This document shows, piece by piece, positions 250 to 24,130 of a stretch of DNA of 64,000 nt. A model generated the notes under the pieces. That model was not told where the DNA came from. It saw only the letters and a list, made by a program, of their open reading frames with translations, and made no database searches. Within the stretch, counting starts at the first letter, position 1. Each line of letters begins with the position of its first letter. The position numbers and the translations under genes were made by a program. Where the stretch lies: NCBI GenBank assembly GCA_012838425.1, contig DUPG01000021.1, positions 21,413 to 85,412 on the forward strand. Direction: 5' to 3'. This DNA comes from Clostridiales bacterium (GTDB lineage Bacteria; Bacillota; Clostridia; Christensenellales; CAG-138).

Positions 250-1527
250 ATGTCAACATGTGCGATAGTCGGAATAAACTGGGGCGATGAGGGCAAGGGC
301 CGAATGGTCGATTTGCTTGCAGAACAGTTCAATATTGTAGTGCGCTATCAAGGCGGCAGCAACGCAGGGCATACTGTTATAAACGAGTTCGGCAAGTTCG
401 CGCTGAACCTGTTGCCTTCGGGTATTTTCCGCTCAGATGTAATAAATGTGTTGGGAAACGGCGTAGCGCTTGACCCCGAGCACCTAAGCGGTGAAATAGA
501 CAGGCTTCGTTCTGTTGGCGTTATCATTACACCCGATAACCTGAAGATTTCTGACCGCGCATGTATTGTTTTCCCATTTCACAAACTTTTAGACGAATTA
601 GAGGAAATCAGGCTAAGCGATAAGAAATACGGTTCTACAAAGCGTGGAATAGCACCTATTTACGGCGACAAATATCAAAAGAAGGCAATTCAGGCAGGCG
701 AGGTGCTTACTCCCGACTATTTGAGAGAACGCCTGCACGACATAGTTGCGTGGAAGAATCTAACTATATCCGGCGTGTACGGTGCAAAGCCCATTGACGA
801 AAAAGAGCTGTGGGACTGGTGTGAAAAGTTCTTGTTGCCCTTAGCGCCATTTATCTGTAACACGGGCAAGCTGCTTGAGGAAGCACATAGAGATAATAAG
901 AGCATATTGTTTGAAGCACAATTAGGTGCATTACGCGATATTGACTATGGTATTTACCCCTACTCTACTTCTTCATCGCCCTTGGCAAGCTATGCGCCCA
1001 TTGGTTCCGGCGCACCCTGGATACAGATTGACGATTGCTTGGGCGTTGTTAAAGCATTTTCTACCTGCGTAGGCGAAGGACCTTTCGTGGTTGAGCTGTT
1101 CGGGGAAGAAGCCGAAAAGCTAAGAGAAATTGGAAACGAGTATGGCGCAGCGACAGGGCGCCCCCGCAGGGTTGGCCCGTTAGACTTAGTGGCTACGCGC
1201 TATGGCGTACGCGTGCAGGGCGCAACACAGTTGGCATTGACAAAGCTTGATGTGCTTTCCTACATGGATAAAATACCTGTTTGCGTTGCGTATAAGCTTA
1301 AAGATGGCACAATTACAACCGATTTCCCGTTCACACCCTATCTTTACGGCGCAACTCCTATAATCGAATACTTCGACGGCTTTAATTGCGACATATCGGG
1401 AATTCGCGAATACGATAAGCTGCCCAAAGCCGCTAGGGAATACATTGAATATATAGAAGAAAAGGTAGATTGCAAGATAACCTACATATCAGTAGGTCCC
1501 AAACGCGAGGAGATAATTATTCGTTAA
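250..1527 (+). CDS. purA: adenylosuccinate synthetase
   Basis: 425 aa. N-terminal GINWGDEGKGR and QGGSNAGHTV motifs are typical of PurA. AAGGAG RBS lies 7 nt before the ATG. purB follows 12 nt later. Confidence 0.95.
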   Translation: MSTCAIVGINWGDEGKGRMVDLLAEQFNIVVRYQGGSNAGHTVINEFGKFALNLLPSGIFRSDVINVLGNGVALDPEHLSGEIDRLRSVGVIITPDNLKISDRACIVFPFHKLLDELEEIRLSDKKYGSTKRGIAPIYGDKYQKKAIQAGEVLTPDYLRERLHDIVAWKNLTISGVYGAKPIDEKELWDWCEKFLLPLAPFICNTGKLLEEAHRDNKSILFEAQLGALRDIDYGIYPYSTSSSPLASYAPIGSGAPWIQIDDCLGVVKAFSTCVGEGPFVVELFGEEAEKLREIGNEYGAATGRPRRVGPLDLVATRYGVRVQGATQLALTKLDVLSYMDKIPVCVAYKLKDGTITTDFPFTPYLYGATPIIEYFDGFNCDISGIREYDKLPKAAREYIEYIEEKVDCKITYISVGPKREEIIIR

Positions 1528-1539
1528 TAGGAGAACCAT

Positions 1540-2970
1540 ATGGAAAAAACCGTTTACGAAAGCCCATTGTGCAGCCGATATGCTTCAGATGAAATGCAAT
1601 ATCTGTTCTCGCCTGACATGCGCTATCACACATGGCGCAGGTTATGGGTTGCATTGGCAAAGGCAGAAAAGGAATTAGGGCTTGATATTACGCAAGAGCA
1701 GATTGATGAGCTAATAGCAGGCATAGAGCATATTGACTACGAAGCGATTGCTAAAAAAGAGAAAGAAACACGCCACGATGTAATGTCGCACATATACGGA
1801 TATGGGCTTAACTGCCCCAATGCTAAGGGCATAATTCATCTTGGGGCAACAAGCTGTTATGTTACCGATAACGCCGATGCTTTAATCTATATAGACGCGC
1901 TGAAGCTTGTTATAAAGAAGGTTCTTAATGTTATTGCTAACTTAGCTGAATTTGCTGAGCAATACAAGGACTTGCCTACATTGGGCTATACCCATTTTCA
2001 GCCTGCACAGCCTACGACTGTTGGCAAACGCGCATGCTTGTGGATACAGGACTTCATGCTTGACCTTGAAGAGCTGACTTTCGTAAAGAACACTACCAAG
2101 CTATTAGGCTGCAAGGGAACAACAGGCACACAGGCAAGCTTTTTAAGTCTCTTTAACGGAGACCACGAAAAAGTAAAGAAACTGGACAAGCTTATTGCGC
2201 AGGAATTCGGAATGAGCGACACCTACCCTGTTTCAGGGCAGACATATCCGAGAAAAGCAGACTCAAGAATACTTAATGTTCTGTCATCCGTCGCACAAAG
2301 CGCATATAGATTCGCGAACGATATGCGCCTGTTGCAGCACATGAGAGAGATTGAGGAGCCTTTTGAAAAGAATCAGATAGGTTCATCTGCTATGGCATAT
2401 AAGCGCAATCCTATGAGGTGTGAGCGCATCTGCTCGCTTTCAAGGTATGTAATCACCAACGCGCAGAACGCAGCTAATACTGCAGCTACACAGTGGTTAG
2501 AGCGCACATTAGACGATTCGGCGAATAGGCGAATCTCACTTCCCGAAGGCTTCTTGGCAATAGACGCTGTACTTAACCTGATGATAAATGTAACAAGCGG
2601 CTTGGTTGTATATCCAAAGGTTATTGAAAAAAACCTTATGGAATTCCTGCCCTTTATAGCTACTGAAAACCTGCTTATGAGCGCAGCAAAGGCCGGCGGC
2701 GACCGTCAGGAAATGCACGAAATTATACGAAAGCACTCTATGGACGCTGCTGCGCGTATGAAATTAGAGGGCAAGGATTGTGATTTGCTGCACCGCCTTG
2801 CTAACGATACGGCGTTTATACTCGATAAAGAGCAGATAGAAAGTGCTTTGAACCCGAAGGACTATGTAGGCAGAGCACCGCAGCAGGTTACTGAATATCT
2901 TAATGAGTATGTGTACCCTGCTTTGAAGGCTAATGACTTTGAAAAGGTTATAGCTGAAGTGAATGTATAA
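1540..2970 (+). CDS. purB: adenylosuccinate lyase
   Basis: 476 aa with the fumarate-lyase superfamily signature GSSAMAYKRNP. Length and N-terminus (SPLCSRYAS) fit B. subtilis-type PurB. AGGAG RBS. Confidence 0.95.
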   Translation: MEKTVYESPLCSRYASDEMQYLFSPDMRYHTWRRLWVALAKAEKELGLDITQEQIDELIAGIEHIDYEAIAKKEKETRHDVMSHIYGYGLNCPNAKGIIHLGATSCYVTDNADALIYIDALKLVIKKVLNVIANLAEFAEQYKDLPTLGYTHFQPAQPTTVGKRACLWIQDFMLDLEELTFVKNTTKLLGCKGTTGTQASFLSLFNGDHEKVKKLDKLIAQEFGMSDTYPVSGQTYPRKADSRILNVLSSVAQSAYRFANDMRLLQHMREIEEPFEKNQIGSSAMAYKRNPMRCERICSLSRYVITNAQNAANTAATQWLERTLDDSANRRISLPEGFLAIDAVLNLMINVTSGLVVYPKVIEKNLMEFLPFIATENLLMSAAKAGGDRQEMHEIIRKHSMDAAARMKLEGKDCDLLHRLANDTAFILDKEQIESALNPKDYVGRAPQQVTEYLNEYVYPALKANDFEKVIAEVNV

Positions 2971-5184: not shown

Positions 5185-6462
5185 TTATATCAAAGCCATG
5201 CCTAAAGTCAGAATACCGATATTATTGCTATAGATTATCGGGAACTGCGACAAAGGCAGGGGACTTGTGCCTACGCCGACCTCAATAGTATAGCCCGGTC
5301 GGTTATATGTTTGAATGAACCAATCCTTATAGCCTGCGTATGCGGATTCAGGCGGAGTCAATGAAAGCTCATAGCCGCTTGACGCCGCAAAGGCTTCGCC
5401 GATTTCGCGTGAACGCGGGGGCTCATAGTCAAGATACTTCCAATAGATTACCCTACCCTGTGTATGATATGCCAATATCAGCCTGAAATCATTCTGTAAT
5501 GTGAACTGCTCCATAGCTTGACTTTCAGGCGCACTCAAGGGTTCAGTGCCTACATAATCACGCGGAGCAGGCGATGTAAAGCCCTGCGCGAACTTAATAT
5601 CACGCGCTAACTCCCAGCCTGCTGGGTAGTTCAGATTCAAATCTGTGCCCAATATGTTCGCCTTCCAGCCTTCAGGGAACGGAACATCAGGGTATGCGGC
5701 TGAAATTGCACGCGCTTGATTATAGAAGGTGCCCTGCGATAATACACCTGTTACCAAATCAACACCGTCGGGGTTTACCATAGGAATTACTGTTAGGTTC
5801 ACATTGTTCAGCAATTCATTCGCGCTTATGTTGTATATGTTACCGCCTGACGCAAATGCGCGGCTTAAATCCTCAACATATTTCAATAATACATATGATG
5901 TTATCCACTCGTTTGCGTGATGAGCGGCGTTATATGCAACCTGCGTTCTGCCCGTTCCCAAACGCATGAAAAGCAAATCCTTGCCCATTACGCTGGTACC
6001 TAAAGAGCCAACGCGAATAAAGGGATAGCGCATAGCCAAGCCTTCAATCATAAGCGCGTTGAGCTCAGACGATATGGGAATGTCCGTCGGCACTACATCA
6101 AAGCTGAGGGGAACTATTATTCGCGTTCCTACCTGAATATTCAGGGGGTTGATGTTCGGGTTTGCTGTTCTTATCGCGCTGACACTCGTATTGTATTTTT
6201 CGGCTAACTGCCAGAAGGTTTCTCCCCTGTTTATAGAGTGGGTAACATAGCCTACAAGATATGGCCTCAGCATTGACCAAGTAAGCATACCCACTATACC
6301 GTCTGCGACTAAACCATTGGCTCTTTGGAAGCGTTGAACTGCTGAAAGCGTGCGCGTACCGAATATTCCGTCAATCTCACCGGGATTGTAGTCGGCTCTA
6401 TCCAGTGCCGTTTGCAGTACAAAAACCTCTTGTCCTGCGCTTCCAACTCTTAGCGTTCTCAT
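5185..6462 (-). CDS. M14-family gamma-D-glutamyl-(L)-meso-diaminopimelate peptidase-like protein with PG_binding_1 and LysM domains
   Basis: 425 aa. N-terminal peptidoglycan-binding repeat (GSAGQEVFVLQTAL...DGIFGTRTLSAVQRFQ...DGIVG) is followed by a LysM (GETFWQLAEKYNTSVSAIRTANP) and then a zinc carboxypeptidase core with HHANEW (HxxE). No signal peptide. GGAGGAG RBS. Confidence 0.8.
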   Translation of the reverse strand: MRTLRVGSAGQEVFVLQTALDRADYNPGEIDGIFGTRTLSAVQRFQRANGLVADGIVGMLTWSMLRPYLVGYVTHSINRGETFWQLAEKYNTSVSAIRTANPNINPLNIQVGTRIIVPLSFDVVPTDIPISSELNALMIEGLAMRYPFIRVGSLGTSVMGKDLLFMRLGTGRTQVAYNAAHHANEWITSYVLLKYVEDLSRAFASGGNIYNISANELLNNVNLTVIPMVNPDGVDLVTGVLSQGTFYNQARAISAAYPDVPFPEGWKANILGTDLNLNYPAGWELARDIKFAQGFTSPAPRDYVGTEPLSAPESQAMEQFTLQNDFRLILAYHTQGRVIYWKYLDYEPPRSREIGEAFAASSGYELSLTPPESAYAGYKDWFIQTYNRPGYTIEVGVGTSPLPLSQFPIIYSNNIGILTLGMALI

Positions 6463-9785: not shown

Positions 9786-10730
9786 ATGGAGAAAATAGTA
9801 ATAGCCCTTGGTGGAAATGCGCTTCAGGAGGGAAATGGCGCAGCGACTGCCGAATCCCAGCTTGAAGTTGTGAAAAAAACATCGCAGCACATAGCCGACA
9901 TAATTGATGCGGGCTACAATGTAATAATAGCGCATGGCAACGGTCCGCAGGTCGGGCGAATTGTGCTTCAAAACGAATATGCTTCGAGCATAACACCCGC
10001 TATGCCTTTTGATGTATGCGGTGCTATGAGTCAAGGCATGATTGGGTATCACATTCAACAAGCATTGAAAACAGTATTGAAGGAAAGAAACATAAACCGA
10101 GATGTTGTAACAGTTGTAACTCAAGTAGTTGTTGATAAGAACGACCCGGCATTCTTACACCCCACAAAGCCCATAGGTCCTTTCTATACAAAGGAAGAAG
10201 CTGAAAAAATCGAGAAGGAAAAGGGCTACACATTTGTTGAGGATTCCGGTCGCGGATACAGGCGCGTTGTCGCTTCGCCCAATCCTATTGAAATCGCTGA
10301 GCTTAATGCGGTTAACTGCTTGGTTGAAAACGGCTTTATAGTGGTTACGGTTGGCGGCGGCGGAATTCCCGTAATAAAAGATGAAAATGGCAATTTGACA
10401 GGCACAGCAGCGGTTATAGACAAGGATTTGGCAAGTGAACGCTTGGGCGAGGATATGGACGCGGACATTCTGCTGATACTGACCGCTGTTGAGAATGTTT
10501 ATATTAACTACGGCAAGCCAGACCAGCTTCGCCTTGATACACTGAGCGTTGAGCAGGCAAGAAAGTATATGAACGAAGGGCATTTTGCTCCCGGTTCTAT
10601 GAAGCCTAAGATTGAGGCCGCTTGCCGCTTCGCTGCTTCTAAAAAAGGCAGAAGAGCTATAATCACTTCATTGGATAAGGCTGTTTATGCTTTATCGGGC
10701 AACGCAGGCACCGTTATTGTTAACGAATAA
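9786..10730 (+). CDS. arcC: carbamate kinase
   Basis: 314 aa. N-terminus KIVIALGGNAL and HGNGPQVG are amino-acid-kinase/carbamate kinase hallmarks. GGAGG RBS. Confidence 0.9.
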   Translation: MEKIVIALGGNALQEGNGAATAESQLEVVKKTSQHIADIIDAGYNVIIAHGNGPQVGRIVLQNEYASSITPAMPFDVCGAMSQGMIGYHIQQALKTVLKERNINRDVVTVVTQVVVDKNDPAFLHPTKPIGPFYTKEEAEKIEKEKGYTFVEDSGRGYRRVVASPNPIEIAELNAVNCLVENGFIVVTVGGGGIPVIKDENGNLTGTAAVIDKDLASERLGEDMDADILLILTAVENVYINYGKPDQLRLDTLSVEQARKYMNEGHFAPGSMKPKIEAACRFAASKKGRRAIITSLDKAVYALSGNAGTVIVNE

Positions 10731-20500: not shown

Positions 20501-21180
20501 AGCTGTGCGACGAAGATTACTGTTTGACTTGGGAATACCCATACATAGGGGCTTACGCTGTTCCCACAAAGCGTTCTGTAACAAGCTTGAGAACAAGAAT
20601 TTCACCGCCTGATGTTCCGCTGTTCATTGCGGAGCAGGAGGACACACCGCTTACCGCAGTGCAGATAGGTACGGCAACACACTTGGTGTTTGAAAAAATA
20701 GCTATAAAGCCACATGATGAAAGCACAGTACGCGAAGAAATAAAAGGGCTGGTCGAAGCAGGCTTCCTGACACAAAGGGAAGCCGACAGCATATACATAC
20801 AAGGAATTGTAGATTTCTTTACGAGTGATTTGGGCAAAAGGCTTATTGCCTCGCCGCATTATGTGCGTGAACAGGAGTTTATATGCAGAATGAAGGCAGA
20901 TGAGCTGTTGAGCTCTGATTATGCTTCGGAATATATGCTTTTGCAAGGCGTAATAGACTGCTGCTTCATAGAAAACGATAAATGGGTGTTAATAGACTAT
21001 AAGACAGACAATGTTAAGGGTTATTCACAAGAGGAGCTGTATGTACACTCACAGCACCATATACAGCAGTTAAGGAATTACGCAAGGGCTTTGGAAATCA
21101 TAACTAAGCGAAAGGTTAAACAAGCATATATTCATTATGTATATGCAGGTAGTGTAAAAATGTTCGATAATATAGAATAA
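17581..21180 (+). CDS. addA: ATP-dependent helicase/nuclease AddA (UvrD/Rep-type helicase with C-terminal RecB-family nuclease)
   Basis: 1199 aa. Walker A AAAGSGKT, helicase motifs (FVDEYQD, TIHKSKGLEF, LYVALTRA) and a C-terminal nuclease motif GVIDCCF...LIDYKTD. GGAGG RBS. Confidence 0.9.
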   Translation: MNWTDEQREAIRVEGNVLVSAAAGSGKTAVLTERVIDRIIKGTDISEILVVTFTNLAAEEMKKRIETKLYERAHTVEDSKLKERLYAQAQGVAKANISTLHSFCLYLIKRNYFKTDLPPVIRPIDENEQELLMSEAMEETLDNLFDNDSSSAIKLISVFGGEEKLIEIIKQIYFFMCQRPKGEEWLSRAVEAYKVAKEELASSMLINEFWWRVKEQLKIAIYHYNKALDLVCSTSDSIYEALNDKLDYCDNAYSADSYELMICILENNKPKAKRGKAKDADYTDINKINAHKKQAEKALKATSKYKVSITDEAKKLNHLYPYMQQLAQAVLTFRDKYSKKKQQVGAIDFSDMENHALKLLNDPSICEACKERFKYIFVDEYQDINLLQDSIISAIKRDDNIFFVGDVKQSIYRFRNAEPKLFIKKAAQYSNGLNGCTLNLSSNFRSSDSVINFTNEIFSVIMNERTGEINYDETCKLKKEGQAGVGSIDFEIIEHNKSADNECTDAEEESNNENAENSEYQESETNTDDNEKEDDSEEEIDALEAEAKLAAQYIHDLMQSDGFYAPNEKVFRKYRYSDFAILMRSVANRSDIFASILAAEGIPCYTDQKGGFYDALEVQVFVNLLRVLNNRQQDIPLLSVMRSALGNFDAEELAKIRVLTNSTRAQGKKSVIDCLFEISAVNNPLGQKAKAFIEKLDKWYRYTQLITMEEIVSKLLHHTGYYAYVSALPNGYTRTLNLDMLKEVASAFDSNIGGGLHSFLRYLEGIAKSSQQSEAQDSSADVVQIMTIHKSKGLEFNVVIIPCLDRKMISKEPSSSNVLLHNDYGIGVRFIDLDTNANSKSLIFNANALVKTDEERSDAMRILYVALTRAREKLLLIASNKSAEGLRSTIQSIDKYGDNTVTQTLSAKSFYEWLLIGIKNSRYSDALNAALINGEGCVDTLRIKRRHISEFTLEFDDSKKEAVFNALDEFKNIELCDEDYCLTWEYPYIGAYAVPTKRSVTSLRTRISPPDVPLFIAEQEDTPLTAVQIGTATHLVFEKIAIKPHDESTVREEIKGLVEAGFLTQREADSIYIQGIVDFFTSDLGKRLIASPHYVREQEFICRMKADELLSSDYASEYMLLQGVIDCCFIENDKWVLIDYKTDNVKGYSQEELYVHSQHHIQQLRNYARALEIITKRKVKQAYIHYVYAGSVKMFDNIE

Positions 21181-21207
21181 TCTTTTGAATTTTTTTACAA
21201 GAAACGC

Positions 21208-21236
21208 TTGACAAGCCTGTTAGTTATATGTATCAT
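21208..21236 (+). promoter_or_regulatory. candidate strong sigma-A-type promoter for the PurF-like gene
   Basis: TTGACA (21208-21213), 17-nt spacer, TATCAT (21231-21236). Confidence 0.55.
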
Positions 21237-21244
21237 GTTTAATG

Positions 21245-21300
21245 GGAATTATTTTTCCTAACGCATTATTGCTTTGGAGAAATAATTCCATAAAATTTTT
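21245..21300 (+). promoter_or_regulatory. 5' leader hairpin (possible attenuator) upstream of the PurF-like gene
   Basis: 14-bp stem GGAATTATTTTTCC (21245-21258) / GGAGAAATAATTCC (21276-21289) with one G-U pair and a 17-nt loop, followed by ATAAAATTTTTATT. Lies between the predicted -10 and the RBS. Confidence 0.4.
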
Positions 21301-21325
21301 ATTGAGAGGTAAAAAGAGGTTAAAC

Positions 21326-22750
21326 ATGAGTGGTTTATTTGGTGTTGTATCAAAAACGGATTGCGTAAGCGATGTATTTTTCGGCACAGACTATCATTCA
21401 CACTTAGGCACAAAGCGCGGAGGAATGGCGATTCTCAACTGCGAAGGCTTCAACAGGGCAATTCACAACATTGAGAATTCCCCCTTCAGAACAAAGTTTG
21501 ATGCTGAAATCGCTACTATGAAGGGCAACAGCGGCATAGGCTGCATATCAGACTCTGACCCGCAACCCCTGATTGTACGCTCACACCTTGGCAACTATGC
21601 GATAATGGGTGTAGGGCGTATCAACAATGTGGACGAGCTTGTTGAGCACACATTCAAAAACGGCAGAACACAATTCTTAGAGATGAGCGGCGGTAAAATC
21701 AACAATGTTGAACTTTGCGCCGCTTTAATCAATGAGTGCGAATCTATTCCTGAGGGTATCAGGTTCGCGCAGCAGAAAATCGACGGTTCTATGTCAATAC
21801 TTGTGCTGACTTCTGACGGAATATATGCCGCACGCGACTACTGCGGAAGAACTCCGTTAGTAATCGGCAAGAAGGAAGGCGCATACTGCGTAGCGTTCGA
21901 GAGCAGCTCATTCATCAACTTAGATTACGAATTCCACAGGGAGATAGGGCCCGCAGAAGTCGTGTTCATAACCGCAGAAGGCGAGCAGACTGTACTCCCC
22001 GCATTAGACACAATGCAGATTTGCACATTCCTTTGGGTATATTACGGCTACCCCACCTCAATTTACGAAGGCGTAAATGTTGAGGCTATGAGGTACAAGG
22101 GCGGCGAAATACTTTCACAGCGCGATCGTGGCATTGATATTGATTCTGTTGCGGGAATACCGGATTCGGGCTCGGCATACGCTATTGGCTATTCAAACGC
22201 CTCTAACATTCCTTTTGCCCGTCCTTTCATTAAATACACACCTACTTGGCCGCGTTCGTTCATGCCATCAAATCAGGCGCAGCGCAACCGTATCGCGCAC
22301 ATGAAGCTGATACCCGTTAAGGCGTTGATAGAAAACAAGAAGCTGCTTCTGATTGACGACTCAATTGTTCGCGGAACGCAAATGGGCGAAACCACAGAAT
22401 TCTTGTATAGAAGCGGCGCTAAGGAAGTGCATGTTAGAGCGGCCTGCCCTCCCCTGATGTTCGGATGTAAGTTTTTGAACTTCTCGCGCTCAACCTCTGA
22501 AATGGAATTGATTGCAAGGCGCGTTGTTCATGAGCTTGAAGGCGATGTTACAAGGGAAAGGCTGTTAGATTACACTAACACAGACAGCGCGGAATACGAA
22601 GCAATGGTAGAGGGCATAAGAAAGCAGCTCAACTTCACTTCTCTGAAATTCCACAAGCTTGAGGACATGGTGGCTTCTACCGGATTGCCTGAATGCAAGC
22701 TGTGCACATATTGCTGGAAGGGCAAGGACGGTTGCTGCAAGGCGAACTAA
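21326..22750 (+). CDS. amidophosphoribosyltransferase (PurF)-like protein lacking the N-terminal Cys nucleophile
   Basis: The ORF track starts at 21242. AAAGAGGT RBS favours the ATG at 21326 (MSGLFGVV..., 474 aa). Collinear with PurF: PRPP loop LLLIDDSIVRGTQ, and Cys residues at Fe-S ligand positions. Confidence 0.8.
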   Translation: MSGLFGVVSKTDCVSDVFFGTDYHSHLGTKRGGMAILNCEGFNRAIHNIENSPFRTKFDAEIATMKGNSGIGCISDSDPQPLIVRSHLGNYAIMGVGRINNVDELVEHTFKNGRTQFLEMSGGKINNVELCAALINECESIPEGIRFAQQKIDGSMSILVLTSDGIYAARDYCGRTPLVIGKKEGAYCVAFESSSFINLDYEFHREIGPAEVVFITAEGEQTVLPALDTMQICTFLWVYYGYPTSIYEGVNVEAMRYKGGEILSQRDRGIDIDSVAGIPDSGSAYAIGYSNASNIPFARPFIKYTPTWPRSFMPSNQAQRNRIAHMKLIPVKALIENKKLLLIDDSIVRGTQMGETTEFLYRSGAKEVHVRAACPPLMFGCKFLNFSRSTSEMELIARRVVHELEGDVTRERLLDYTNTDSAEYEAMVEGIRKQLNFTSLKFHKLEDMVASTGLPECKLCTYCWKGKDGCCKAN

Positions 22751-22760
22751 AATGAAACTT

Positions 22761-22785
22761 CGCGCCCCGAAAGGGGCGTTTTTTG
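22761..22785 (+). terminator. rho-independent terminator
   Basis: CGCCCC-GAAA-GGGGCG hairpin followed by TTTTTTG. Confidence 0.75.
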
Positions 22786-22948: not shown

Positions 22949-24130
22949 ATGAGAAAATATATTGCATTTACACTGATTGCGCTATTTATTGTGCTTACGC
23001 TGTTCGGGTGCAGCAAAAAAGCTAATACCAATCAAACGCCTGACCCAAGCTATGCTCCTAACACCCCAAAGATAAACAATGAGGACGCTATTACGAGAAC
23101 ACCTAACTCAATAGGCATTTTTCCACCTGTTGAAAAGGAAGAAATCAAGATAGGCGTAATCTACAATTCTGACCCTGAGGCTGTTGCTTCCGACTCATAC
23201 GCGCATGACCAAGGCATTGAAGAAGCAAGAGAGGTTTTTGAGCTGAAAAGCAGTCAGATAATCAAAAAAACTAATGTCAGCGAAAAAGATGAAGCCGCTA
23301 TAAAGCAAGCTATTGAAAGCTGCATTAAAGCAGGATGTCATATTATATTTGGCACAAATGCAGGCTACGCAAAGGTTATGGGCGAATACGCGGAGCTGTA
23401 TCCCAATGTAATATTCTCAAATGCCGGCGGTAACAAATCTAACGATACTAATTTCAATAACTATTCGGGTGATATTTATCAGGCATGGTATTTGGCAGGA
23501 ATAGTCGCAGGAATGTCAACAGAGTCTGACCTAATAGGCTTTGTTGCGTCATTCGGCACTAATAATAATGAGATTACTGTCGCGATAAACGCATTCGCAA
23601 TGGGTGTGAACTCTGTGAATTCCAAAGCGAAAGTACATTTGCAGATTACTAACTCAAAGTTTGACGCGGAGCAGGAGCACTTTGCGGCTGTCGCGCTGAT
23701 AGAAAAGGGCTGTGATGTGCTGGCTCAGCATTGCGGTTCGAGCATTCCCCAAACAACTGCGCAGAATCAAAAGGTGTACGGCATTGGCTATAATGAGGAT
23801 ATGAGCAAGGACGCTCCTAAGGCTGTGCTTACCTCTGTGGTTTATAACTGGGATATTTACTACAAGCTTGCAATCTACTATGTAATAGCGGGCGAATGGA
23901 CTAATGAGAATTACAGAGGCACTTTAGGCGAAGGCTTTGTGGATATAACGCCTTTGGCGAACTTCAGCGCAAAGGGTGCAGAAGAAAAAGTTGAAGAAGC
24001 AAAAGCAAATTTTGCGCGTGGAGACTGGGATATTTTCAAAGGCGAAATACCTGCGAACGATGGCTCATCAAAGACAGTATCAGATTTAAGCGAAATAGAC
24101 TGGTATTTTAAGAATATAATAGTTGAATAA
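22949..24130 (+). CDS. BMP-family (PnrA/Med-like) ABC substrate-binding lipoprotein
   Basis: 393 aa. Signal peptide with lipobox LFGC, a low-complexity linker, then a BMP/periplasmic-binding fold (KIGVIYNSDP..., GFVASFG, GIGYNEDM). GGAGG RBS. Confidence 0.8.
   Translation: MRKYIAFTLIALFIVLTLFGCSKKANTNQTPDPSYAPNTPKINNEDAITRTPNSIGIFPPVEKEEIKIGVIYNSDPEAVASDSYAHDQGIEEAREVFELKSSQIIKKTNVSEKDEAAIKQAIESCIKAGCHIIFGTNAGYAKVMGEYAELYPNVIFSNAGGNKSNDTNFNNYSGDIYQAWYLAGIVAGMSTESDLIGFVASFGTNNNEITVAINAFAMGVNSVNSKAKVHLQITNSKFDAEQEHFAAVALIEKGCDVLAQHCGSSIPQTTAQNQKVYGIGYNEDMSKDAPKAVLTSVVYNWDIYYKLAIYYVIAGEWTNENYRGTLGEGFVDITPLANFSAKGAEEKVEEAKANFARGDWDIFKGEIPANDGSSKTVSDLSEIDWYFKNIIVE

Follow-up and report, generated by a model that had tools for sequence, protein, structure and literature searches.

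Amidophosphoribosyltransferase (PurF; EC 2.4.2.14) catalyses the committed and most regulated step of purine synthesis, and much of the thinking on how amidotransferases channel ammonia is modelled on it. The gene described here, at 21326..22750 on the forward strand of a 64,000-nucleotide stretch of contig DUPG01000021.1 (assembly GCA_012838425.1, a Clostridiales bacterium; the whole stretch is hereafter the window), encodes a PurF homologue without the canonical glutaminase residues, and we use the label PurF* for the glutaminase-dead subfamily of [4Fe-4S]-type PurF that includes it. Its closest published precedent is the crenarchaeal PurF', of which we know of no characterisation since 2011. 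PurF' was described as a PurF paralogue that lacks the N-terminal cysteine and is encoded beside purF and other pur genes; that it acts as an ammonia-dependent phosphoribosyl pyrophosphate (PRPP) aminotransferase was put forward as a proposal only (Brown et al. 2011, PMC3261824). A literature search for a characterised bacterial Cys-less PurF returned none and led only to that archaeal account (PMC3261824); the objection foreseen in the initial annotation of this DNA, that the exact subfamily might already have an assigned function, thus found no published characterisation behind it.

PurF* resembles PurF' in being a PurF homologue without Cys1 that is linked to pur genes. The likeness is one of description and may reflect one clade or convergence: the archaeal PurF' carries Ala or Val where the Cys would be, whereas the bacterial PurF* carries Gly or Ser, is in many cases the lone occupant of the purF slot or a stand-alone gene, and still has the Fe-S ligands. 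The PurF' paper, citing Mei and Zalkin, states that the PurF variants C1A and C1S lost glutamine use and kept ammonia use (PMC3261824), and wild-type PPAT makes phosphoribosylamine (PRA) from ambient NH3, thought to enter the channel via the glutamine site (PMC12017579). The formation of PRA from PRPP and free NH3 that we propose for PurF* would resemble these activities; they belong, however, to laboratory mutants or are a side activity of an enzyme with an otherwise intact glutamine site, whereas in the natural lineage PurF* site and glutamine loop were remodelled in their entirety and then strongly conserved. The β-lactam and carbapenam synthetases, homologues of AsnB, likewise kept a class II N-terminal nucleophile (Ntn) domain after glutaminase loss, but with another synthetase domain and another chemistry, so that they offer an analogy only; structures 1mbz and 1jgt are among the distant fold matches of the PurF* model. 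Considering alignments, models and gene neighbourhoods together, we put the chances at about even that PurF* is a glutamine-independent, NH3-dependent PRA synthase that would work beside, or instead of, canonical PurF.

Glutaminase and phosphoribosyltransferase sites of PurF*

The coding sequence and the parts of its product that enter the comparison are:

21326..22750, forward strand: PurF* coding sequence, a glutaminase-dead Fe-S-type PurF homologue (open reading frame, profiles, alignment and model)
21326..22009, forward strand: N-terminal Ntn-fold domain, about residues 1-228 (Pfam GATase_7, 31.3 bits), without the glutaminase residues
22010..22525, forward strand: type-I phosphoribosyltransferase (PRTase) domain, about residues 229-400, with the flexible catalytic loop K303...K327 and a PDSG motif (alignment)
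22022..22024, forward strand: Cys233, aligned with the B. subtilis PurF [4Fe-4S] ligand Cys236 (Cys in 95/97 members)
22343..22381, forward strand: PRPP-binding loop LLLIDDSIVRGTQ, residues 340-352, intact in the alignment
22466..22468, forward strand: Cys381, aligned with the B. subtilis PurF [4Fe-4S] ligand Cys382 (Cys in 97/97 members)
22703..22714, forward strand: Cys460-x-x-Cys463 (LCTYCW), aligned with the C-terminal CxxC ligands (CDGCFTG in the canonical PurF of locus L052)

An AlphaFold2 model of the window protein (111 sequences; predicted local distance difference test 87.2) was compared by Foldseek with known structures: the top 17 matches are all PurF structures, with template-modelling (TM) scores of 0.81/0.84 to 1ao0_A, and the protein is predicted to have the two-domain fold of canonical [4Fe-4S] PurF (1ao0/1gph; TM 0.81-0.84). 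The profile searches proposed in the initial annotation bear out a PurF-like protein at a distance. B. subtilis PurF is found by phmmer at E = 1.7e-43, the TIGR01134 score of 174.9 bits lies below the curated cut-off of 350, Pfam GATase_7 gives a weak match (31.3 bits against a gathering threshold of 25; residues 75-194), and Pribosyltran (PF00156) stays sub-threshold at 15.9 bits against 26.3, although many homologues do score a PF00156 match. Because the protein falls short of the glutamine-dependent equivalog in score and lacks Cys1 and the glutamine-site residues, we file it in a distinct PurF subfamily.

Residues were aligned with HMMER to B. subtilis PurF (1ao0) and with MAFFT to canonical PurFs; Arg26, Arg73/Tyr74, Asn101-Gly102 and Asp127 are given in E. 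coli PurF numbering. In the window protein Cys1 has become Ser2; HRGQ reads HLGT, with Arg26 changed to Leu; GHVRYAT reads GCISDS, the glutamine loop with Arg73/Tyr74 being shorter by 8 residues; AHNGNL reads MGVGRI, Asn101-Gly102 becoming Val-Gly with the Gly as the only glutamine-site residue kept; and SSDTE reads INNVE after a 5-residue insertion, with Asp127 changed to Asn. The initial annotation had recognised the replacement of the nucleophile by Ser and had considered it independent of the start codon, both correctly: the in-frame extension 5' of the start (MGIIFPNALLLWRNNSIKFLLRGKKRLN) contains no Cys, which excludes a hidden propeptide followed by Cys1. Its further claim that the glutaminase motifs are replaced holds for HRGQ, HNGNL and SDTE; the Arg-Tyr motif, in contrast, is not merely substituted but has gone with the shortened loop. 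PurF* as a whole shares with canonical PurF the PRPP loop DDSIVRGT, the flexible loop, the PDS motif, the four Fe-S cysteines and the position in pur operons, and differs from it by the loss of Cys1, Arg26, the Arg73/Tyr74 loop, Asn101 and Asp127, by the 8-residue deletion and 5-residue insertion, and by a further insertion of about 26 residues in the C-terminal region. Identity between the two amounts to 24-31% over the N-domain and rises to 36-41% over the PRTase domain.

Conservation was counted over 97 diverse PurF* members, and mean identity to the query was taken over 96 of them. The residue that follows Met is Gly in 65, Ser in 18, Thr in 3 and Ala in 3 of the diverse members, and Gly in 103 and Ser in 7 of the 120 closest ones: in these alignments the position holds small residues that permit Met removal, and no nucleophile is conserved. 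With regard to the survey of the Ser variant proposed at the outset, Ser is not conserved, Gly prevailing in both samples; and since most homologues have Gly there, Ser2 of the window protein is presumably not catalytic. Arg26 is Leu in 85/97 members, all 97 lack the glutamine loop, the Asn101 position is Val, Ile or Asp family-wide, and the Asp127 position is variable. On this evidence PurF* must be unable to run the canonical Ntn glutaminase reaction, as had been concluded at the outset for the window protein alone. The N-domain does not, for all that, look like a domain in decay: it has family-specific motifs (GTDYHSHLGT, GIGCISD and EMSGGxIN) and polar residues conserved across PurF* (D22, Y23, H26, H47, S75, N101, N126 and E129), and its mean identity to the query is 0.50, next to 0.61 for the PRTase domain.

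The PRTase half-site, comprising the PRPP loop, the flexible loop and the pyrophosphate-binding PDSG motif, is by the same alignments fully kept. D344, D345, S346, R349, G350, T351, K303, R310, S311, Q317, R320, K327, D280, S281 and Y239 are 85-100% conserved, and among them K303, R310, S311, Q317, R320, K327, D280 and S281 are each present in at least 90% of the 97 members, while D345, S346, R349, G350 and T351 of the PRPP loop are near-invariant; all that is known to serve PRPP binding and activation is present. A signature of the family is Gln (Q352) where the PRPP loop of canonical PurF closes with Thr (Thr353), in 96/97. The four ligand positions of B. subtilis PurF (C236, C382, C437 and C440) correspond to C233, C381, C460 and C463, which hold Cys in 95-97 of the 97 members and are invariant or nearly invariant putative [4Fe-4S] ligands. 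The intact PRPP loop and the four cysteines had both been read correctly from the window sequence.

Family spread and purine operons

PurF* is widespread, in the Clostridia and beyond. The homologues scored number more than 8000, of which the 120 best are 66-99% identical to the window protein (nearly all 66-70%); a search of 1.8 billion cluster representatives recovered full-length members with as little as about 35% identity in which GTDYHSHLGT and LCTYCWTG, at the C-terminus, are still present. Species-representative genomes with PurF* at 54-66% identity belong to the Lachnospiraceae, Oscillospiraceae, Acutalibacteraceae, Erysipelotrichaceae and Anaeroplasmataceae, and also to the Planctomycetota, Lentisphaeria (Lentisphaerae), Victivallales and Chitinispirillaceae (Fibrobacterota). 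A protein 99% identical to that of the window occurs on 43 contigs, and the sequencing error that the initial annotation had named as a possible undoing of its claim is thereby ruled out. In a neighbour-joining tree a long branch separates PurF*, as a single clade, from canonical PurF, and judging from these sequences the [4Fe-4S]-type PurF proteins include PurF* as a large and monophyletic subfamily, whose members go under the plain database name of "amidophosphoribosyltransferase". The subclade of the window protein mixes stand-alone and operon members; its identity to the Oscillospirales operon type is 55%. Like PurF*, the closest outgroup in this tree, P0211/P0262, has a shortened glutamine loop, the Arg-Tyr portion being gone, and LCxxCWTG as a C-terminal motif; its residue at the Asn101 position is Ser. 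Unlike PurF*, these proteins keep Cys1 (after a short propeptide) and HRGQ and may retain some amidotransferase chemistry. Their sequences suggest either an intermediate stage of evolution or another, third subfamily of PurF-like proteins.

Gene context was surveyed in 80 GTDB species-representative PurF* loci, in which all open reading frames within 6 kb were clustered all-against-all and canonical PurF was sought by tblastn. Genes of the pur pathway adjoin PurF* in 36/80 loci, in at least five orders: purE-purC-PurF*-purM-purN-IMPCH-purH-purD; purE-PurF*-purM-...-purL; purC-PurF*-purE-purM-purN (Erysipelotrichaceae); purE-purC-purM-purN-PurF*-purH (Anaerovoracaceae); and purH-purD-PurF* (Anaeroplasmataceae, Bacilli). 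The recurrent neighbours are purE (30 loci), purM (29), purN (27), purH (24), the gene for IMP cyclohydrolase (IMPCH; 23), purC (16), purD (14) and purL. Locus L047, as annotated by Pfam, reads purE-PurF*-purM-purN-IMP cyclohydrolase-purH-purD, with PurF* overlapping the start of purM, and in L098 and L099, viewed with 10-kb flanks, the operon extends to a purL of 1229 amino acids. A conserved partner outside the pathway was sought and rejected, as the clustering of the 80 loci yielded pur genes and lineage-specific Planctomycetota neighbours only. In the Lachnospiraceae and in the window, PurF* stands alone and its neighbours are not conserved.

The usual targets of ZTP riboswitches are genes of purine and folate metabolism. 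In 6 of the 11 operon loci scanned (L047, L050, L051, L059, L065 and L085, at about 5200-5440 in each), purE-PurF* is immediately preceded by a ZMP/ZTP riboswitch; L085 has an additional glycine riboswitch at 75-158. Upstream of PurF* in L031 ([Clostridium] aminophilum), at about 5820-5850, stands AACGTTCTTTTTTCGAACATTCGTTCA with inverted CGAAC/GTTCG-type half-sites, which may resemble the PurR boxes of Firmicutes.

Canonical Cys1 purF occurs in tandem with PurF* in only 9/80 loci, in the order PurF*-purF in two Ruminococcaceae and in the order purF (523 amino acids)-PurF* in seven Planctomycetota; in 34/80, PurF* is the sole PurF-family gene of the pur operon within the DNA covered. Lookups from a canonical PurF and from an operon-type PurF* returned the same Oscillospirales operon in three states: with canonical purF only (L089, L090), with PurF* and purF in tandem (L087, L094, L096; tandems also in L052 and L056) and with PurF* only (for instance L098 and L099). 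Extra genes interrupt otherwise conserved Oscillospirales pur operons in L094 (14540-15283) and L090 (8419-9069 and 13149-13595), namely a class I methyltransferase gene between purN and the IMP cyclohydrolase gene, a HAD hydrolase gene between purE and purC, and small open reading frames. Because PurF* repeatedly fills the purF slot of pur operons, we assign it to de novo purine biosynthesis, and these neighbourhoods show the family to be part of that pathway and its regulon. What is new here is PurF* in the purF slot of de novo operons, under ZTP-riboswitch control and in tandem with canonical purF.

The stand-alone gene of the window

The mechanical open reading frame spans 21242..22750. 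We place the start at the ATG at 21326, which gives 474 amino acids plus a stop, because the family N-termini read MGG[FIL]FGV... and a ribosome-binding site, AAGAGG, precedes this ATG; on the same two grounds a 502-residue version from the upstream ATG at 21242, as in some JGI calls (P0300, P0302, P0304), was rejected. The signals around the gene are:

21208..21236, forward strand: promoter of the sigma-70 type, TTGACA-17 nt-TATCAT, with 11/12 matches, kept in the 85%-identical relative L092
21245..21303, forward strand: leader with a hairpin at 21245-21289 (dG -24.3 kcal/mol, z = -3.76), then an A/U-rich run with TTTTT
21314..21319, forward strand: ribosome-binding site AAGAGG, 6 nt 5' of the ATG, read from the sequence
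22762..22785, forward strand: intrinsic terminator GCGCCCCGAAAGGGGCGT (22762-22779) plus a T-run

The window copy is a stand-alone, monocistronic gene with its own promoter and terminator, and the strong promoter, structured leader and terminator of the initial annotation are all recovered (11/12 promoter matches; hairpin z = -3.8; terminator at 22762-22779). The leader hairpin is terminator-like and may be an attenuator; its T-run and both arms of its stem recur in L092 (about 380-440). Rfam at gathering thresholds has no match in the whole window, and permissive settings over 21150-21360 raised only a sub-threshold match on the wrong strand; a riboswitch in this leader was rejected, as neither scan gave a matching family, and none precedes PurF* in 11 stand-alone homologous loci. 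A leader shared among homologues was rejected as well, since 25 upstream regions could not be aligned and only L092 keeps the hairpin.

Elsewhere in the window, purA (250-1527, forward strand) and purB (1540-2970, forward strand) lie in tandem, representing the AMP branch and the SAICAR lyase, and within the 64 kb there are no other de novo pur genes besides these two and PurF*, as first noted. Nor is there a second PurF-family gene in the window; the label "paralogue" first given to this gene takes it for granted that its genome has a canonical purF as well. Directly 3' of PurF* is an orphan gene for a PnrA/Bmp-family lipoprotein (22949-24130, forward strand) with its own leader and no adjoining permease or ATPase genes. 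PnrA/Bmp is a family of nucleoside-binding ABC receptors, and the gene is possibly a purine-salvage neighbour of PurF*. A carbamate kinase gene (arcC equivalog, 422 bits) lies at 9786-10730 on the forward strand, about 11 kb 5' of PurF*. In the fermentation of arginine or purines, carbamate kinase yields ATP and releases ammonia, and its presence is consistent with an ammonia-rich physiology.

Function of PurF* and its alternatives

Since the PRTase chemistry is kept, the use of glutamine lost and the purF slot filled, PurF* probably makes the product of canonical PurF from ammonia. The reaction would be PRPP + NH3 -> 5-phosphoribosylamine + pyrophosphate, with free ammonia as substrate. In the canonical enzyme the glutamine loop runs from R73 to E84 and the flexible loop from K326 to L350, and Y74 forms one wall of the channel together with I335 (PMC7953260). 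The 8-residue deletion in the glutamine loop takes out both Arg73 and the channel-wall Tyr74 and would leave the former glutamine pocket permanently open, so that external NH3 could enter the inter-domain channel by this way. The retention of the N-domain would be explained by the channel and the closed PRTase active site, both of which are built against it. Such an isozyme would work beside canonical PurF, and in some lineages perhaps replace it, in ammonia-rich anaerobic habitats; synthesis of PRA on ammonia would fit these habitats and save the ATP spent on making glutamine. A bolder version of this reading, which we regard as doubtful though worth stating, is that a considerable number of anaerobes from gut, rumen and sediment would have PurF* as their only enzyme for the committed purine step, run on free ammonia, and that the remodelled N-domain (D22, H24/H26, H47, S75, N101, N126, E129) would be no relic but would recruit or gate ammonium, or form a new allosteric site. 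Of the three functions first suggested, the NH3-dependent PRA synthase is thus the one we favour, and an unrelated phosphoribosyltransferase or a sensor protein is disfavoured by the purF slot, the ZTP riboswitches and the tandem purF.

Several observations weigh against the ammonia-dependent synthase. The conservation of the N-domain (50% across phyla) and its new polar motifs exceed what a scaffold needs, and the ammonia model requires none of them. The gene context covers at most 10 kb around each gene; because purC, too, is missing from the purE-PurF*-purM operons, a canonical purF could lie elsewhere together with it. The window gene itself is not in a pur operon. Metagenome-assembled genomes of Candidatus Fimenecus contain stand-alone, window-like PurF* as well as operon-type PurF*, 55-58% identical (P0285/P0072 versus P0451/P0463), the latter in purE-purC-PurF*-purF-purM (L094, L096); because this candidate genus carries both types, the stand-alone PurF* could have a diverged role, and if both were present in one Fimenecus genome, that genome would have three PurF-family genes. 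Lastly, pairs of PurF* and purF that look co-transcribed occur in two phyla and would be explained by a physical partnership no less readily than by redundant isozymes.

The alternative that fares best, rather unlikely in our estimate, takes up this last point: PurF* would be a non-autonomous partner of canonical PurF, entering a hetero-oligomer and thereby altering its feedback regulation, its stability or Fe-S/O2 sensing. PurF is a dimer or tetramer, the tandem and apparently co-transcribed pairs of Ruminococcus, Fimenecus and the seven Planctomycetota loci would suit such a partner, and so would an N-domain that is highly conserved with new motifs. The alignment also shows Arg26 replaced by Leu and Arg307 by Thr, at positions that serve allosteric nucleotide binding in B. 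subtilis PurF. For crenarchaeal purF/purF', too, adjacency of the two genes is reported (PMC3261824). A regulatory pseudo-enzyme would not, however, be expected to keep all PRTase catalytic residues and the flexible loop under strong purifying selection across phyla, nor to stand as the sole PurF-family gene of the pur operon in the 34 loci mentioned above, and many genomes, that of the window included, carry PurF* far from any purF.

Less probable still is a PRPP-dependent transferase with another nucleophile or product, for example one that supplies a ribosylamine-type intermediate for thiamine or another cofactor, or one that takes an amine other than ammonia, the operon link then reflecting shared regulation only. 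The change of Thr353 to Gln next to the PRPP site, in nearly all members, points this way, as do the conserved inserted EMSGGxIN and the insertion of about 26 residues in the C-terminal region. Second copies of purF linked to thiC exist in clostridia, as in the thiC-purF operon of C. ragsdalei (PMC6505512); that copy may be PurF* or canonical in type. Yet the only conserved neighbours in the 80 loci are pur genes, with no enrichment of thiC or cofactor genes, and a different product would sit poorly with the occupation of the exact purF slot in several independent gene orders, the translational coupling to purM and the ZTP riboswitches.

That Ser2 acts as an alternative N-terminal nucleophile, so that glutamine or another amide is still hydrolysed as by a Ser-Ntn hydrolase, seems to us very improbable. 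Ser, Thr and Cys all serve as nucleophiles in the wider Ntn superfamily, and the window protein does have Ser after Met; we nevertheless rejected the candidate on family conservation, as Gly predominates at this position among diverse and close orthologues alike, and the oxyanion-hole Asn, the glutamine-binding Arg73 and Asp127 are absent as well. In addition, E. coli PurF C1S is reported to have no detectable glutamine-dependent activity (PMC3261824). A decaying pseudogene, or a sequencing or assembly artefact of a canonical purF, has nothing but the unusual motifs in its favour and can practically be dismissed as already refuted by the conservation data, given an intact frame with promoter, ribosome-binding site and terminator, the 43 contigs with a 99% identical protein, the homologues, over 8000 in number and with identities of 54-70% across phyla, and a confident structure model.

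As a natural, widespread and strongly conserved lineage that gave up the glutaminase half-reaction yet remains in the pathway, PurF* would show how anaerobes of ammonia-rich habitats rewire the entry of nitrogen into nucleotides, and it would amount to a natural experiment on the roles of the Ntn domain and the channel once glutamine is no longer hydrolysed. Thousands of database entries named "amidophosphoribosyltransferase", to which metabolic models assign a glutamine stoichiometry, would have to be corrected. The question raised in 2011 by the archaeal PurF' becomes testable in tractable bacterial proteins.

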